Positions 2,965 through 64,000 of a stretch of 64,000 nucleotides of DNA are shown one piece after another. Numbering within the stretch: position 1 is the stretch's first letter; each line of letters opens with the position of its first letter. A model generated the notes under the pieces. The model searched no databases, was not told the origin of the DNA, and worked only from the letters and a program-made list of their open reading frames with translations. Origin of the DNA: Dehalococcoidia bacterium (lineage in GTDB: Bacteria > Chloroflexota > Dehalococcoidia > Lucifugimonadales > UBA3495). Location: contig OZ220473.1 in the NCBI GenBank assembly GCA_965115955.1, positions 1,301,463-1,365,462 of the forward strand. The letters are read 5' to 3'. The position numbers and the translations under genes were made by a program.

Positions 2965-4668
2965 CTACGTCCAGATGCGGGGACGGCTGGCCGGCGCGTG
3001 AAATGCGAGCATCAGGGCATCGGCTTTGTCGGGAGACGGCAGGCCCCGCTTGCGCATTTCGTCTTTGCTTTCCAGCTTCATCTGGCCGTCGCTTTCGTAG
3101 CTGTAGCGCAGGGCGGCGAGCTCTCCGATGAGCTGGCTGTCGTCGGGGATGCTGATGCGCCCTGTGGCGAAGCGCTCGCGCAGAGTCCAGTAGCCCTCGG
3201 CGCGCAGGTTGGCGAAGGCGCGGCTCTGCCTGGCCTTCCGGGCCACGTTGACGCCGCGCACTGGGTGGCCCAGCTCCCGCAGGCGGTCGACGACGCCTGC
3301 GCCGACGCCGATTTCGTCGACGTAGACCTGGGACGGGCTGCACTCGCGGATGGCGGCGGCAACCCACCCGGCAACCTGCATGGTGTCCATCTGGCGAAGA
3401 ACGCGGATGTCCTCGACGCTGTCTCCGCGCCGACGCAGGATTACGCTGCGGTCGCTGCCGAAGCGGGCGACGTCCACGGCGAGGATGACTTCGCCGGAGC
3501 GGGAAGTCTCCAGGCCTGCCGCGGGCGCGGATGCTTCCGGTGCCGGCTCTCGCTTGCGAACCGCGGCCTCAACGTCGCTCAGGCGGAGCAGGGTGTCCTC
3601 GCCCTGTTCGGGGAACTCGCCCAGAACGCGGGCCCGGTATACTGGGTTGTCTTCGCCCCATATCTCGCGGCGCTCCTGAACCCAGCGCGGTGTGGTAAGG
3701 CCGGGCAAGACGATGCGCCCGGCGCGCACGTTGGGGCTGTCGAGGGCCGAGATGGTGAAGGTGCGGTAGATGCCGCGCTCTTCGTAGAAGGCCCGTCGGA
3801 AGGCTCCGGTCATGGTCGTGGGGTTGCCGATGAGCAGAAGCAGCGGGTCGGCCGAGGTCATCACCGACTCGATGGCCTCGAAGATCTCTTCGCCGACGCC
3901 CTCTGCCTCGTCTACCACGATGAGCATATTGGGGCTGTGGAATCCCTGAAACTGGTCGGCGCTGTCGGCCGACAGCCCCATGGCGTAGCGGTCGTCGGCC
4001 AGCTCCCAGCGGGTGTCCAGCATCTTGCCGCCCAGCGTTTCGGCGGCGGGGCGGTAGAGGCGGTGAATCTGCCGCCAGAGGATGTGGCGCACCTGCCGGA
4101 AGGTGGGAGCGGTGCTGAGGGCGATGGCGGCCTCCCGATGCGCGTGCATGAACCACAGCACGGCCACGGCGGCGCAGAAGCCCTTGCCCAGCCCGTTGCC
4201 GGCCTTGACGGCGACGCGGCGGTTTGCGGTAAGGGCGTTCAGCACATCTTCCTGCTTTTCCCAGAGGCGCACGCCCAGCATATCCCGGGCGAAGGCGACG
4301 GGCGACGACAGGGCCGGCGCCTCCGGCCCATCCGCTGCGCGGGCGAGGCCGGCGAGCGGCGCGGTATACTGCGCCGGGGCCTGTTCGTCCGGAACCCGGC
4401 GGCGGCGGGGATGTGCGCCGCCGGTCAGGGATTTGCGTTCCGAGGGCCATGCTCCATAACGGCGGGCCGAGGCAATGCCCCGGGCATGGGCGGGCTGAAG
4501 AGATACCCGCAGTCGCGGCAGCGATAAACGTCGTTGTCCTCCTCTCGTTTCTTGTCCAGTATGAGCAGTCTTGGCGATAGACAGCGTCGGCATTCCGGCT
4601 TTCTCAACTCTCACTCTTCCATGCTTGCTCTCCGGCGGCGGAGCGGCTGGCTCCGGCCCGAAGGCCAA
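2965..4668 (-). CDS. Phage terminase large subunit (start uncertain)
   Basis: Walker A 'KAGNGLGKGF', Walker B 'LIVVDEAEG', and a C-terminal RuvC-like nuclease region 'VDVARFGSDRS'. The conserved part starts near 'FARDMLGVRLWEKQ' (about 4290). No ATG, GTG or TTG lies between 4281 and 4593. Confidence 0.8.
   Translation of the reverse strand: MAFGPEPAAPPPESKHGRVRVEKAGMPTLSIAKTAHTGQETRGGQRRLSLPRLRVSLQPAHARGIASARRYGAWPSERKSLTGGAHPRRRRVPDEQAPAQYTAPLAGLARAADGPEAPALSSPVAFARDMLGVRLWEKQEDVLNALTANRRVAVKAGNGLGKGFCAAVAVLWFMHAHREAAIALSTAPTFRQVRHILWRQIHRLYRPAAETLGGKMLDTRWELADDRYAMGLSADSADQFQGFHSPNMLIVVDEAEGVGEEIFEAIESVMTSADPLLLLIGNPTTMTGAFRRAFYEERGIYRTFTISALDSPNVRAGRIVLPGLTTPRWVQERREIWGEDNPVYRARVLGEFPEQGEDTLLRLSDVEAAVRKREPAPEASAPAAGLETSRSGEVILAVDVARFGSDRSVILRRRGDSVEDIRVLRQMDTMQVAGWVAAAIRECSPSQVYVDEIGVGAGVVDRLRELGHPVRGVNVARKARQSRAFANLRAEGYWTLRERFATGRISIPDDSQLIGELAALRYSYESDGQMKLESKDEMRKRGLPSPDKADALMLAFHAPASRPRIWT
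4425..4607 (-). CDS. Small zinc-ribbon ORF overlapping the 5' region of the terminase ORF in another frame
   Basis: CxxC-x20-CxxC ('ECRRCLSP...YRCRDCGY'). It looks more protein-like than the terminase-frame translation of the same DNA. Confidence 0.3.
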   Translation of the reverse strand: MRKPECRRCLSPRLLILDKKREEDNDVYRCRDCGYLFSPPMPGALPRPAVMEHGPRNANP

Positions 4669-4783: not shown

Positions 4784-4813
4784 TTGACCCTTTTTATTCC
4801 GGTAGCCTACAAT
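4784..4813 (+). promoter_or_regulatory. Sigma70-like promoter upstream of the rhodanese gene
   Basis: TTGACC (4784-4789), an 18-nt spacer, then TACAAT (4808-4813). Confidence 0.4.
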
Positions 4814-4892
4814 CTGGCAAAATACCGTCATAATGCCGTTTGCCGTCCGGCGCGCCTCGATCGCACCGGCGGCGGCGGACGAGGAGGGCGAG

Positions 4893-5720
4893 ATGGCCCA
4901 CGAGGATTATGCCCATCCGGAATATCTGGTCGAGGCCGACTGGCTGGCCGAACACCTGGACGACGCCAATGTGGTGGTGGTGGACTGCGACGTTGACGCC
5001 GCCTACAACAGGGGGCACATCCCCGGCTCGGTGGTGGCGCCGGACAACTTCGAGAAGGACCCGGATACCGGCCGGATCCACCTGATGAACCCATCGCAGT
5101 TCCAGGCTATGTGCCAACGGCTGGGCATAGGCAACGATACTCTGGTAATCAGCTACGACAATTCCCAGAGCCTTTACGCGGCCCGGCTGTGGTGGGCGCT
5201 GAATACCTACGGCCACCGGAACGTTAGGGTTCTGAACGGAGGGTGGCGCGGCTGGATAGAGGGCGGTCACGGCGTTGGGCTGGAACGCCCGGCGCCTGCC
5301 GCCGGGGTCAGTTTCACCCCTCGCCGCGATGAGTCGCTGCTGGTCATGGCGGACGAGCTGAAGGAAGCGTGCAGCCTGGAGGGCAGCGTTGTCTGGGACG
5401 TGCGCAGCGACGGTGAGTGGGACGGCTCGGAAACGCGCGGCAACAAACGGGCGGGGCATATCCCCGGCGCGGTGCACCTGGAATGGTTCAACGTTATGGA
5501 CCGCCAGACCCATCGCTTCAGGCCGGCCAGCGAGATTCGCAGGCTGCTGGCCGAAAATGGCATCACCCCCGATAAGAATGTCTACACCTATTGACAGGGC
5601 GGCATCCGTGCGGCGCACGGCGTGTTCGTCCTGAAGCTGGTGGGATACAACAGCGCCAAAAACTACGACGCCTCTATGGGAGAGTGGGCAAACCGTGAAG
5701 ATACCCCGCTGGAGGTATGA
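4893..5720 (+). CDS. Two-domain rhodanese / thiosulfate sulfurtransferase with an in-frame TGA (5592-5594) at the catalytic Cys position; candidate selenoprotein
   Basis: ATG at 4893 follows the RBS GAGGAGG (4881-4887). The tracked ORF stops at TGA 5592-5594, but the same frame continues 'QGGIRAAHGVFVLKLVGYNSAKNYDASMGEWANREDTPLEV*' to 5720. That continuation is the rest of the rhodanese active-site loop (C-x-G-x-R) and the C-terminus. Confidence 0.7.
5595..5633 (+). promoter_or_regulatory. SECIS-like stem-loop immediately 3' of the in-frame UGA
   Basis: Hand-folded pairing: 5595-5602 with 5626-5633 (8 bp, 2 G-U), 5603-5605 with 5622-5624, and 5606-5611 with 5615-5620. The apical loop is GGC. 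The loop begins 17 nt after the UGA. Confidence 0.5.
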
Positions 5721-5813
5721 GGTAAATGGCGCAGATTCAGCAGCGGAAATGACGGAGCGGCGGCTGATGATTCAACAATCGCGGCCTTGCCCGGACGTCA
5801 GGAGATTGACCAG

Positions 5814-6644
5814 ATGAAACGATGCGCCCTGTTCATTCTGCTGCTGACGGCCGTTGCGGGAACCATGTCATGCTTTATCGGCGGGTCAGCGCCGGAAGGC
5901 CCGGCGGCGCTTATTCCCGATGGCGCGCATTCCGTGGTGCTGGCCGATGTCAGCCAGGCCGCGCTCAACCGCACCGACCTGCCCCCAAGCCTTGAACGCC
6001 GCGCGTCGAACCTGGACGACTACGGCGATGTTCGCCAGCAGGCGGCAGTTTCGCTGGCATCAGGCGAGGTGACGATTACCAGGGGCGACTTTGCTTTCGA
6101 CGACATCAGAGAAGCCCTGGGCGAGGACGGTTACGACGAGACAGAGTACCGGGGATACAGTTTTTGGGAGTCGTCCGGCGGCAGCCGGGTCACAGCCCTG
6201 CTGGACGACGACGGTTTTCTCATCGATGGGGGCCCGGACGCCGTGGCCGAGGTGCTGCGAAACCGCAAGCGCGATTCCGGGCTGCTGTGGAACGACGACG
6301 AAGGGGAATTGAACCGGGCCATGGATCTGGCCGGCGAGGGGCTGGTTACGCTGGCCTCCAGGCATTGCGGTCTGGACGATAACCGGGGCTGCAGCGCCGT
6401 CGCCTGGGCTTTCTCTCGAGATGAGGAGCGCCGCACCGTTATCGAGGGCGCCGCTGCAATCTTGTTCAGAAGCGTCCCTGAGGCCAACTCGGCGATGCCG
6501 ATAATCGAGCAGGCCATCGACGCCCACCCGATTATGACGCTGACGGAAATTGGAATGACCGGCGCCACCGTTATTCTGAAGACGGATATTGACCGCGACC
6601 AGTTCTCCAGCCTGGAATTGCCGGTCAGCCTGAGGCGGCAGTAA
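5814..6644 (+). CDS. Predicted lipoprotein, unknown function
   Basis: ATG at 5814 follows AGGAG. Signal peptide plus lipobox-like 'MKRCALFILLLTAVAGTMSC'. Confidence 0.6.
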   Translation: MKRCALFILLLTAVAGTMSCFIGGSAPEGPAALIPDGAHSVVLADVSQAALNRTDLPPSLERRASNLDDYGDVRQQAAVSLASGEVTITRGDFAFDDIREALGEDGYDETEYRGYSFWESSGGSRVTALLDDDGFLIDGGPDAVAEVLRNRKRDSGLLWNDDEGELNRAMDLAGEGLVTLASRHCGLDDNRGCSAVAWAFSRDEERRTVIEGAAAILFRSVPEANSAMPIIEQAIDAHPIMTLTEIGMTGATVILKTDIDRDQFSSLELPVSLRRQ

Positions 6645-6769: not shown

Positions 6770-7807
6770 CTACAGGGGCAGAGACACTACCTGGCGGGTC
6801 TGGGAGCTGCGGGTTACCGCCTCGGTGAACTCCATGTAGTGTACGCCCACCTCGAAGGGTGTGCGGGTGATGCGCTCCCGGCCGCGGATGGCGTTGCAGA
6901 ACTCTTCTTCGACACGCCAGCGGGCCTGGCTTTCCGGCGGGTTGGGGATTTCCTCCATGGAGCTGTCGCCGCGCCGCCCGCCGTATACGTTCAAGGCGGA
7001 GTCGACGCGCAGGGTGCCCTCGCTGCCGTAGATCCAGACCTCGCTGCCGGGGCCGAAGCCGGTAATTGCGCTGAAGCGCATGTTGGCCTGGGCGCCGCTG
7101 GACAGGTCGGCCAGAATGTCAACGTGGTCGGGGATGGTCACGGGCACGAGGCTCCCGTCTTCGTCGCGGCGCTGCCGGACGTTCACCCTGGTGTTGGCCA
7201 TGACGCGGGTGGCGGGGCCGACCCAGCGAATCATGGCCTCGTACCAGATGCCCATGTTCAGGATGTTGTAACCGCTCAGGTCGCGATCGTTGCGCCAGTG
7301 CATCGGGCCGTTTGTGTCGGCGAACCCCGGCGTCAGCGACTGAAGGGACACCGCCAGCGGGTCGCCAACGTAGCCCTCGGCAATCTTCCGGATAAGCAGG
7401 TTGTCCACCCGGAAGGTCAGGGGCGATGGGACAATCTGGGCCGCCAGGCCGGGGCGCGCCCGCGACGCCTCCAGCATCTCCCGCGCCTCGGCGGCCGTCG
7501 CCGCCATCCGCGCTTCGGTGAGCACGTGCTTGCCTGCTTCCAGCGCGGCGATGGTCAGGGTGCGGTGCATATAGGGCCAGGTGCCGATGCACACGGCGTT
7601 GATGGAATCGTCCTCCAGCAGTTCCTGCCAACTGTCGTACACCGTGGGGATATTGAACTGGTCGGCCACTGCCCGCCCCGACTCGCGGGAGCGGTTAGCC
7701 ACCGCTACGATCTCCACGCCGTCGACCTGGCGGAAACCGGGAATGTGCCGGTCGCGGGTGTTGCGTCCCGCGCCGATAAGCCCGATCCGGATACCTTCAT
7801 TCGCCAT
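6770..7807 (-). CDS. Gfo/Idh/MocA family oxidoreductase
   Basis: N-terminal Rossmann 'IRIGLIGAGRNTRDRHIPGF' and typical family layout. Paralog of 8422-9483. Confidence 0.85.
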   Translation of the reverse strand: MANEGIRIGLIGAGRNTRDRHIPGFRQVDGVEIVAVANRSRESGRAVADQFNIPTVYDSWQELLEDDSINAVCIGTWPYMHRTLTIAALEAGKHVLTEARMAATAAEAREMLEASRARPGLAAQIVPSPLTFRVDNLLIRKIAEGYVGDPLAVSLQSLTPGFADTNGPMHWRNDRDLSGYNILNMGIWYEAMIRWVGPATRVMANTRVNVRQRRDEDGSLVPVTIPDHVDILADLSSGAQANMRFSAITGFGPGSEVWIYGSEGTLRVDSALNVYGGRRGDSSMEEIPNPPESQARWRVEEEFCNAIRGRERITRTPFEVGVHYMEFTEAVTRSSQTRQVVSLPL

Positions 7808-39750: not shown

Positions 39751-40035
39751 ATGCCAAATTCCGAGCACGGCAAGGTTGAAGCGGAAATCGTCTACTGCGT
39801 AGCTTGAGGTTACTTCCCGGTCGCCACGTGGCTGGCGATGGAGTTCTTCAAGTCCGACGCTCCGGGAGATGTCGCCATCAAGATGACCCCCTCCGACAGG
39901 GGGCGCCTTGAGGTTTACCTGGACGGCGAAATGATATTCGACCGCAAGGCGGACGGCGGATTCCCCGACCTCGGCAAGGTCAACGAGCTCAAGATGACCA
40001 TCGCCGAAAAGCTGTTCGATCTCGAAGAAGCCTGA
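39751..40035 (+). CDS. SelW/SelT/Rdx-family selenoprotein with a CxxU motif (UGA at 39805-39807)
   Basis: Reading from ATG 39751 gives 'MPNSEHGKVEAEIVYCVA[TGA]GYFPVATWLAMEFFK...'. This joins in frame to the tracked 65-aa ORF (39838-40035). The Rdx-family 'IxYCxxU/C' redox motif sits at the expected N-terminal position. Confidence 0.75.
39820..39839 (+). promoter_or_regulatory. SECIS-like hairpin downstream of the SelW-like UGA
   Basis: (G)TCGCCA (39820-39826) pairs with TGGCGA(T) (39833-39839). The loop is CGUGGC. The loop starts 19 nt after the UGA. Confidence 0.5.
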
Positions 40036-62516: not shown

Positions 62517-64000
62517 CTAATGCGGCTGCCCTGTCGGGTCGGCTTGCCTCTTGCGAGGTTCGGCTTGCGGCGGGAGCCGCTCTATGTTAAGCCATATCAG
62601 ATTAGTGCCGGGGTACAGGGTAGCGCCCTGGAACGCGACAGGATCGCCGTCGCTGATGACGACAAGGAGTATCTGCCCGCTCATAACCCCTTCCAGCGTG
62701 TTGAACGCCATGAACTCCGTGTCGGGAGCGTAGAAGCTCCACGCCTGCGTCACCGCGTCCAGATACCACACCCGCACCAGCCGGCCGCCCAGGCTGGCGA
62801 ACACCGCGGCGGGGTCTGCGTGCGGCGCCGCAACGGGCGTTGAAGATGGCGTCGGGGCGGGCGTCGGCGATAGCAATGGCGTGGGCGTCGGCGTCGGAGT
62901 CGGCTCTGGCAATTCTGGCAATAGAGTGGGGGTTGGCGCTGAAGCCCCTCTGTTTCCCTGAGTGGCGCTGGTGGGCGCGCTGGTGGGCGCGCTGGTCGTC
63001 GTAGTTTGGGCTGTGGTGGGCGTAGCCGACGGCGGAATGGGCGTGTTGGTAGGCGTATTGGTTGGAGTGGGCGTGTTGGTAGGCGTGTTGGTTGGGGTAG
63101 GCGTATTGGTAGGCGTGTTGGTAGGCGTATTGGTGGGCGTAGCCGTGGGCGTATTGCTTGGCGGCGTGGAGCTCACCGTGAAGGTGGTGGAGGTTCTGCC
63201 CTCCAGGTTCCCCGTTGATGGGTTGGGACCGCCGGGCCCGTGCCAGCTCCAGGTAACCGTGTGAGTCCCTACGCCCAGGTTGACGCAGGGGCTCAGGTTA
63301 ACGTTTCGACCGGTGGTGATGCCGGACACGCTGGTGGTTACAAAGACGCCGGTAGCGCCGTCGATCAGCGCTGCGTTGGCGGTTACCGCTGTCATGCCCT
63401 CCCGGGACTCCAGGTAAGTTACGCCCTTATGCTTGGCGGAAAGCAGATTGTAACAGGCCTGCACTGTGCTGCTGCCCTGGGTCAGGGTCAGATAATTGTC
63501 TGCACTCGATACCAGCAGCGGCGCCGCCTTCACCTCTACGGTTATGCTGTAAGCATTGTTTGCGGATGTTGTGCCGGAGAGGGTGTGTGAGCCGACGGTC
63601 AACGTTTCGGTTCTGGCTGGGTCGACGCCCTGGCTCAGGCGCACCCGGGCGGCGGGCCAGACGCCGGGCGGCAGGGTGACGGTTGCCTTGGTAGCTGAAT
63701 CTCGGACAGCCTGGAAACCGGTAGCAAGGCTTCTTACCGTAACTGCGGTGCCGGTAACGCTCCCAACGAGAATTTCGGCATGGGGTTCCGAAATCACGTT
63801 CACGGTCAGGTTGTAGGCGACAGATGCAGCAGTAGAGCCAGACACAGTATGCGTTCCGAGCAGCAGCGTTTTGAATTGTTCTGCTGCTCCGCCGCCTGAT
63901 ACATGGCCGGCGAAAAAGCGCAGCCGAACCGACGGCTGGTCCCTCGGGATGGTGACATTTACCGTTGCCCCAGAGTCAGAGAATGAGACTTGGTACCCTG
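62517..64000 (-). CDS. Paralogous secreted cell-surface protein; the 5' end lies beyond the window
   Basis: Near-identical nucleotide blocks are shared with 60459-62153 (63190-63560 vs 61130-61500; 63820-64000 vs 61770-61960). The tracked 'M' at 63845 is an internal GTG (Val). Confidence 0.7.
   Translation of the reverse strand, partial: GYQVSFSDSGATVNVTIPRDQPSVRLRFFAGHVSGGGAAEQFKTLLLGTHTVSGSTAASVAYNLTVNVISEPHAEILVGSVTGTAVTVRSLATGFQAVRDSATKATVTLPPGVWPAARVRLSQGVDPARTETLTVGSHTLSGTTSANNAYSITVEVKAAPLLVSSADNYLTLTQGSSTVQACYNLLSAKHKGVTYLESREGMTAVTANAALIDGATGVFVTTSVSGITTGRNVNLSPCVNLGVGTHTVTWSWHGPGGPNPSTGNLEGRTSTTFTVSSTPPSNTPTATPTNTPTNTPTNTPTPTNTPTNTPTPTNTPTNTPIPPSATPTTAQTTTTSAPTSAPTSATQGNRGASAPTPTLLPELPEPTPTPTPTPLLSPTPAPTPSSTPVAAPHADPAAVFASLGGRLVRVWYLDAVTQAWSFYAPDTEFMAFNTLEGVMSGQILLVVISDGDPVAFQGATLYPGTNLIWLNIERLPPQAEPRKRQADPTGQPH

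Follow-up and report, generated by a model that had tools for sequence, protein, structure and literature searches.

Rhodanese-like sulfurtransferases with selenocysteine (Sec) in place of the catalytic cysteine are so far known from sequence predictions. The Sargasso Sea study of 2005 (PMC1088965) reported three Sec sequences of a "Rhodanese-related sulfurtransferase" (COG2897), the Global Ocean Sampling (GOS) study of 2008 (PMC2398784) listed 8 Sec versus 3,367 Cys sequences of a "Rhodanase-related sulfurtransferase" (cd01449) and a single Sec sequence of a "Sulfurtransferase COG2897", and a 2026 review catalogues "rhodanese-related sulfurtransferase, form 4 (UxxG)" as a predicted selenoprotein with the reference sequence MCY3690685.1. 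A literature search for a characterised Sec-rhodanese found nothing, and a preliminary description of the locus studied here was accurate in stating that such enzymes have only been predicted from metagenomes and are biochemically unexplored. The current study concerns a gene at positions 4893 to 5720 of a 64-kb stretch of DNA from a Dehalococcoidia bacterium (GenBank assembly GCA_965115955.1, contig OZ220473.1, positions 1,301,463 to 1,365,462), which is referred to below as the window. Sequence comparisons indicate, with a probability of roughly 0.9, that it encodes a 275-residue tandem rhodanese of the thiosulfate/3-mercaptopyruvate sulfurtransferase class (COG2897, cd01449) whose catalytic Cys is replaced by Sec, and that the in-frame TGA at 5592-5594 is almost certainly a Sec codon rather than a premature stop. 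The gene is, with high confidence, an unannotated member of the already predicted selenoprotein family and not a discovery; since that family was predicted twenty years ago, a further instance will not surprise a specialist. What is added here is its home in the Chloroflexota (Dehalococcoidia/SAR202 and others), a fixation of Sec that is all but complete, the real boundaries of the Sec insertion sequence (SECIS) and the movement of its register.

The read-through product consists of 233 residues, the predicted Sec (U) and a further 41 residues, i.e., 275 amino acids in total. The start at ATG 4893 is supported by database homologues, nearly all of 232-237 amino acids, that cover the query from its first residues, and by tblastn matches to genome loci that begin with query residue 1 in most cases. 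The peptide "...ITPDKNVYTY-U-QGGIRAAHGVFVLKLVGYNSAKNYDASMGEWANREDTPLEV" quoted in the preliminary description is exact on translation, and the frame does continue for 41 codons past the TGA; it does not, as was also stated, take those 41 codons to reach 5720, which is the third base of the true stop. Two stretches of the joined product match the Pfam family Rhodanese (PF00581, E = 2.8e-36), and the product aligns over its full length with 1UAR, 3HZU, 1E0C and 1URH; it thus has the two tandem rhodanese-homology domains of a COG2897-class sulfurtransferase. The active-site loop reads U-Q-G-G-I-R-A and thus corresponds to the six-residue loop C-x-x-G-x-R/T, the nucleophile being the predicted Sec instead of Cys.

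A search of the PDB aligned the read-through protein end to end with the solved rhodaneses 1UAR, 3HZU, 3AAX, 1E0C and 1URH, the last being Escherichia coli SseA; the match to the Thermus thermophilus rhodanese 1UAR extends over residues 6-273 (E = 1.7e-49). In the best solved relatives (1UAR, 3HZU, 3P3A, 1E0C and 3AAX) the UGA falls on the catalytic Cys, which opens the CRIAERS or CRIGERS loops of these structures. The 41 residues that follow match the last part of the catalytic domain and align with the C-terminus of 1UAR. Full-length relatives with 42-44% identity carry YCQ(A/S/G)G(V/I)RA... at the same site. The placement of the UGA on the rhodanese catalytic Cys, already proposed from the sequence of the window, is hence borne out by 1UAR, 3HZU and 3AAX as well as by the homologues with YCQxGxRA. 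A 233-residue product would lack the whole active site.

Two scans provided the comparative data. The first retrieved the DNA of 80 loci from a genome collection with one genome per species, all of them from Dehalococcoidia, SAR202 or Chloroflexota metagenome-assembled genomes (MAGs) and with 64-89% identity. The second was seeded with more distant truncated clusters (an alignment of five sequences) and found 383 relatives, the best 80 of which were used; these came mostly from Dehalococcoidia, with Tepidiformaceae, Chloroflexia, Anaerolineaceae and one bin labelled Gemmatimonadetes. At the column of 5592-5594, TGA is present in 86/86 genes of the first scan, six tandem upstream paralogues included, and TAA, TAG, TGC or TGT in none, whereas the true terminators of the same genes are mixed (46 TAG, 25 TAA and 15 TGA). 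Past the TGA, the frame stays open for 40-45 codons in 85 of these 86 genes. In the second scan 91 of 92 genes have TGA and one has TGC, and in metagenome contigs of clusters with 41-49% identity the TGA precedes Q(G/A)G(I/G)RAAH. Altogether, TGA is held at the catalytic position in over 140 different gene sequences of the Chloroflexota (Dehalococcoidia/SAR202 and others). The best 120 database homologues, in turn, are nearly all 232-237 amino acids long (exceptions of 267 and 200), as gene callers are expected to stop at the UGA. An exact match to the 233-residue product of the window itself was looked for and is not on record.

Pairwise differences among 81 orthologues revealed the same coding signature on both sides of the UGA. 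Upstream (codons 1-232), differences at codon positions 1, 2 and 3 amount to 0.206, 0.146 and 0.458, with a mean amino acid identity of 72%; downstream (codons 247-275) they amount to 0.165, 0.104 and 0.431, and codons 235-275 reach a mean pairwise amino acid identity of 80%. On this pattern, the downstream 41 codons are under purifying selection at the protein level, i.e., they are translated, and a decaying pseudogene is excluded since both sides carry the coding signature. An in-frame UGA that aligns with the Cys of homologues, in a frame conserved on either side, is a hallmark by which bacterial selenoproteins are recognised. The preliminary description had named the orthologues as one place to decide between a Sec-rhodanese and a pseudogene, and they decide for the former: the TGA is fixed, the codons after it are conserved and there is no scattered truncation.

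Some further observations concern individual members and the immediate context of the UGA. The sole TGC (Cys) homologue across both scans is locus L201 of an uncultured Anaerolineaceae bacterium (gene position about 2188, ...SYCNGGARGALAAF), which is without the conserved hairpin described below and could serve as a natural Cys counterpart for comparison. Some Dehalococcoidia possess a second, tandem Sec-rhodanese copy about 900 nucleotides (nt) upstream of the orthologue (L056, L060, L061, L066, L067 and L074), and tandem copies also occur in L163, L177, L179, L186, L219 and L230; the copies have the loop U-Q-A-G-L-R-A-A-H and share the TGA and the hairpin core with the main gene. The Tyr codon preceding the UGA (5589-5591) is TAT in 81/81 close orthologues versus about 20% of the Tyr codons elsewhere in these genes, while in the wider family TAT, TAC, CAT, CAC or CAG is found there. 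Immediately 3' of the UGA, all genes shown from both scans have a C, with the exception of L170. The TAT-UGA-C context may influence the balance between termination and Sec insertion.

A bacterial SECIS is expected within the coding sequence directly 3' of the UGA, and the preliminary description had proposed an almost continuous 17-bp helix with a G-containing loop 17 nt from it. As a fold in the window this helix stands: the 39 nt from 5595 to 5633, folded alone, have a free energy of -23.3 kcal/mol (z = -3.79), and none of 200 shuffled sequences was as good. As a conserved unit it does not stand. Only the upper 6 bp and the GGC loop (5606-5620; -8.0 kcal/mol, z = -2.46) are kept, and this core is unchanged in 66/66 genes of the clade with His at codon 242 (His242 clade). 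Among the relatives from the clade, 61-100% form the lower 11 pairs, with almost no compensatory change, and the full 17-bp helix was rejected as the conserved SECIS, its lower-stem mismatches being nearly uncompensated. Judged on the window alone, the helix is only suggestive; it is the comparative data that make the case.

The hairpin is embedded in the codons for I-R-A-A-H-G, i.e., in the active-site loop and the helix after it, and its imprint is visible at synonymous sites. The per-codon synonymous entropy is minimal right after the UGA (0.24 for codons 233-242, compared with a gene mean of 0.65). In 60 orthologues/species of the His242 clade, the window included, codons 238-242 (ATC CGT GCG GCG CAC) show zero synonymous variation, which holds for 0/157 other columns with a conserved residue (Mann-Whitney p = 7e-5). 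Elsewhere in the same genes the codons of the hairpin are rare, with CGT making up 8% of the Arg and GCG 22% of the Ala codons, and a member of 41% GC content uses GCG just twice in the entire gene, both times within the hairpin. Three Cys homologues that encode RAAH or RAAQ use other codons (CGG GCA GCC CAC, AGA GCA GCA CAT and CGC GCC GCG CAA), and the hairpin is formed in 0/3. A synonymously frozen hairpin just 3' of the UGA is thus conserved at the RNA level, as a SECIS would be.

Pairing was tested in the wider family with 144 distinct sequences from both scans, 127 of them outside a marine subclade. In these 127 sequences the six core pairs are standard base pairs in 97.9% of cells versus 18-65% when the 3' partners are slid, and the loops comprise 114 GGC, 6 GGG and 1 GUC. 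Pairing is preserved by double changes in six sequences at pair 15-29 (C-G to G-C) and in two each at pairs 18-26 (U-A to A-U) and 19-25 (G-C to U-A); compensatory changes were found in the more distant L080, L176, L085 and L153-156. In the marine subclade, which has Asn at codon 242 and comprises about 20 species (for the most part SAR202 MAGs of marine origin), the upper hairpin no longer forms. Here an 8-bp hairpin GGCGAACA-GUN-UGUUCGUC starts 17 nt after the UGA, about 7 nt 3' of the main register, and the frozen codons are shifted to 240-246 (GCG GCG AAC AGT xTG TTC GTC), whereas codons 238-239 vary freely; the AGT within this hairpin represents only 4% of the Ser codons elsewhere. By a single C-to-A change (His242 to Asn) the first helix is disrupted and the sole mismatch of the second is removed. 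A third register, GUGCUG-GUCA-CAGCAC, is seen in four sequences. One hairpin common to all members was considered and rejected: RNAalifold gave -1.56 for all sequences together, and a clean hairpin for each clade alone. It is somewhat more likely than not that, within one orthologous family, the SECIS hairpin has shifted among at least three registers without leaving the codons for the active-site region. Should both registers work, the family would offer a natural series for the tolerance of SelB toward the spacing between UGA and SECIS, and a case of an RNA signal and a protein sequence that co-evolve in the same nucleotides.

Decoding of UGA as Sec in this lineage is supported indirectly by a second gene of the window. 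As the preliminary description had noticed, the product of 39751-40035 has a CxxU motif; it scores 48.9 bits against TIGR02174 (CXXU_selWTH), above the cutoff of 34.2, and TGA occupies the motif in 59/59 Dehalococcoidia relatives, many of them from the same assemblies as the rhodanese loci. This SelW-like gene has a conserved hairpin of its own after the TGA (GUCGCC, a 6-nt loop and GGCGA). A scan of the whole window for TGA-split coding frames recovered the rhodanese but no further candidate that was convincing; the short SelW-like gene escaped it, as the upstream part of that gene has fewer than 25 codons. Independent information comes from BSepDB, whose search for selenoprotein genes was restricted to genomes having two or more of SelA, SelB and SelD (PMC13326102). 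Its top ten bacteria by number of selenoprotein genes include Dehalococcoidia bacterium UBA1141 (49) and isolate 10f4566d-… (46) (PMC13326102), and each of these two genomes carries an orthologue of the rhodanese gene (L036 and L032). In a study of sponge microbiomes, SelA and SelB co-occurred in most symbiont bins of various phyla (PMC5649159); the Chloroflexi MAG SB0662_bin_29 (L018) is among the closest relatives of the present gene.

How well do other explanations account for these data? Gene callers and the NCBI annotate a 233/234-residue product as "sulfurtransferase" and no sel genes were seen in the window, as would be the case for a pseudogene or a genuinely truncated 233-residue protein in which the TGA is a nonsense mutation and the frame downstream is decaying. 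Against this speak the same TGA in 86/86 and 91/92 homologous genes, at a column where TAA or TAG never appears, a downstream part of 41 codons that is more conserved than the upstream part and has a coding substitution pattern, and a shortened product devoid of the whole active-site loop. The comparative data effectively refute truncation, which is left with a very small probability. An error of assembly or sequencing would require just one wrong base to turn TGC or TGT into TGA in a window that appears to be derived from a MAG, but the TGA recurs in independent assemblies from many projects, both short-read and long-read, and an RNA element is the only explanation for the way in which synonymous sites around it are frozen; the chance of such an error appears negligible. 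A recoded UGA might not be read solely as Sec: a near-cognate tRNA for Trp or Cys, or Cys-tRNA(Sec), could decode it, in which case the hairpin would be a general stimulator of read-through and the enzyme often in a Cys or Trp form. UGA-C is the leakiest termination context in Escherichia coli and is found in nearly all members, and the identity of the residue at the UGA rests on sequence comparison. However, the UGA stands at the catalytic nucleophile, a position that functions with Cys or Sec only, the lineage has retained numerous other genes with UGA in place of a Cys codon, related genomes with an orthologue are scored as having the Sec pathway, and the geometry of the hairpin with its G-first loop fits the model of the bacterial SECIS. 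We consider a recoding that is not solely to Sec improbable, with a small chance of being right.

The assignment as a Sec-containing rhodanese has to be weighed against several results that do not favour it. ARAGORN, Rfam and tblastn, the last with E. coli SelA, SelB and SelD as queries, found no tRNA-Sec, selA, selB or selD across the 64-kb window and about 1.1 Mb of retrieved flanking DNA; this is a weak negative. The sole tRNA of the window is a tRNA-Pro. In a 59-nt context the helix after the UGA is less exceptional than when folded alone (z = -1.31, 18/200 shuffles as good). Formal covariation within the close clade was not significant, with one compensatory pair that 100/500 shuffles reach; this test is weak because the stems hardly vary. 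An Rfam search over 5500-5800 gave no match to the hairpin region even at E values of up to 10. Across the 80 loci no conserved operon partner emerged, the neighbourhood being variable and without a functional hint, as judged with a crude caller of open reading frames (ORFs) that yields many antisense artefacts in GC-rich DNA. Substrate and physiological role are what we infer from the enzyme class.

On the standard bacterial mechanism, SelB·GTP would deliver Sec-tRNA(Sec) to the UGA at 5592-5594 while being tethered to the mRNA hairpin 11 nt 3' of it; both selenium insertion and SelB binding are assumed by analogy with that pathway. If rhodanese chemistry applies, the selenolate would attack a sulfane sulfur donor (thiosulfate or a persulfide), and from the resulting enzyme Se-S(-) intermediate the sulfur would go on to a thiophilic acceptor. 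An Arg stands at +5 of the loop U-Q-G-G-I-R-A, as in thiosulfate-type enzymes with CRIGERS and CQTHHRS, which suggests a donor of the thiosulfate or persulfide type. Compared with Cys, Sec would have a lower pKa, be the better nucleophile and leaving group, and resist being over-oxidised irreversibly. According to Ogasawara et al. (2001), as cited in PMC5877670, rhodanese carries selenium in vitro, and the predicted Sec-rhodanese may have a role in selenium trafficking.

With respect to its genomic surroundings, the gene is accompanied at the 80 loci by varying neighbours, e.g., a lipoprotein-like ORF, a Gfo/Idh/MocA oxidoreductase, a luciferase-like monooxygenase, an acetyl-CoA synthetase and others. 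In the window (Table 1), the upstream and divergent terminase ORF adjoins the Sec-rhodanese gene in only 4/80 related loci and therefore suggests an inserted prophage or phage remnant. A functional link between the rhodanese and the lipoprotein-like or oxidoreductase ORF downstream of it is not evident. Near the end of the window, two long neighbouring ORFs have a translated stretch of roughly 50 residues in common (opposite strand, at about 61201 and about 63262) and are probably paralogous genes.

Table 1. Coordinates of the features of the window (position 1 is the first nucleotide of the 64-kb stretch).
Feature	Position	Strand	Basis and remarks
Phage terminase large subunit, upstream of and divergent from the rhodanese gene	2965-4668	-	PHROG phrog_2, E = 1.3e-37; no Pfam match
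Promoter-like site TTGACC-18 nt-TACAAT	4784-4813	+	Consensus scan, 10/12 matches; pattern only, not evidence of function
Shine-Dalgarno-like GGAGG	4883-4887	+	Sequence reading; 5 nt 5' of ATG 4893
Coding part 1, 233 codons, ending in ...NVYTY	4893-5591	+	N-terminal inactive rhodanese domain, then the C-terminal catalytic domain as far as the last residue preceding the active site
In-frame UGA, read as predicted Sec at the catalytic-Cys position	5592-5594	+	Alignments with homologues and PDB structures
Coding part 2, 41 codons: active-site loop and C-terminal end of the catalytic rhodanese domain	5595-5717	+	Conservation, 1UAR alignment
Extended 17-bp helix with two single-base bulges; GGC triloop starting 17 nt after the UGA	5595-5633	+	Folding; lower 11 bp lineage-specific
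Conserved putative SECIS core CCGUGC-GGC-GCACGG, 6 bp and GGC triloop, 11 nt after the UGA	5606-5620	+	Folding and comparative data
True stop codon TGA	5718-5720	+	Sequence reading; terminator variable among orthologues
Signal-peptide or lipoprotein-like protein, downstream neighbour	5814-6644	+	No Pfam or PHROG match; kept beside the gene in about 21 relatives
Gfo/Idh/MocA oxidoreductase, downstream neighbour	6770-7807	-	PF01408, E = 1.9e-24
SelW/SelT/SelH (Rdx)-type selenoprotein gene, ...EIVYCVA-U-GYF..., TGA at 39805-39807	39751-40035	+	TIGR02174
Two neighbouring long ORFs with a repeated segment	60459-62270, 62517-63845	-	Neither with a Pfam match

Sec, not Cys, appears to be the fixed catalytic residue of this predicted Chloroflexota sulfurtransferase. 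The named close database homologues are labelled "sulfurtransferase", and because nearly all of them end at the UGA, the catalytic half of the active domain is absent from the protein records of a widespread Chloroflexota enzyme. The protein is small, looks soluble and is monomeric by homology, and would be convenient for asking what a selenolate and an Se-S intermediate gain in sulfane-sulfur transfer.

In comparison with known systems, the gene most resembles the catalogued "rhodanese-related sulfurtransferase" family, with which it shares the tandem COG2897 class, a predicted Sec that replaces the catalytic Cys, the UxxG motif (here U-Q-G-G), an origin from uncultured marine bacteria and a record that consists of predictions. 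PF00581, the COG2897-type architecture and UxxG, which together characterise form 4, are all found in its product, as judged by the description of that form; MCY3690685.1 did not occur among the members of the clusters that were looked up. Other rhodanese domains with Sec differ in architecture or motif: the single-domain COG0607 Sec-rhodaneses of forms 1-3 (e.g., NF041203, rhodanese_LYCAU, CxU) give 36 bits versus a cutoff of 115, and the rhodanese/DsbD fusion TsoB (NF045694) gives 14.8 bits versus a cutoff of 805. None of the NCBIfam models reaches its cutoff for the product of 4893-5720. The tandem rhodaneses with Cys (1UAR, Mycobacterium tuberculosis SseA 3HZU and CysA 3AAX/3HWI, and Azotobacter vinelandii RhdA 1E0C) have the same two-domain fold over the full length (E values of 1.7e-49 to 3e-34), the six-residue loop with Arg at +5 (CRIAERS, CRIGERS) and the C-terminal ...NYDGSW.EWGN in common with it, but their identity is about 35-40%, and they have Cys, as part of a different loop, where the present gene has the UGA of U-Q-G-G-I-R-A.

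The 11-nt rule of E. coli and the bSECIS model are the references for the geometry of the hairpin. As in E. coli fdhF and fdnG and in the model of bSECISearch, it lies directly 3' of the UGA, within the coding sequence, and its loop begins with G; the mini-helix of the main clade starts 11 nt after the UGA, in line with the 11-nt rule. It differs from the E. coli type, which has a GGUC loop and a bulged U, in its GGC triloop, in having no match in Rfam and in the presence of at least three registers within a single family.

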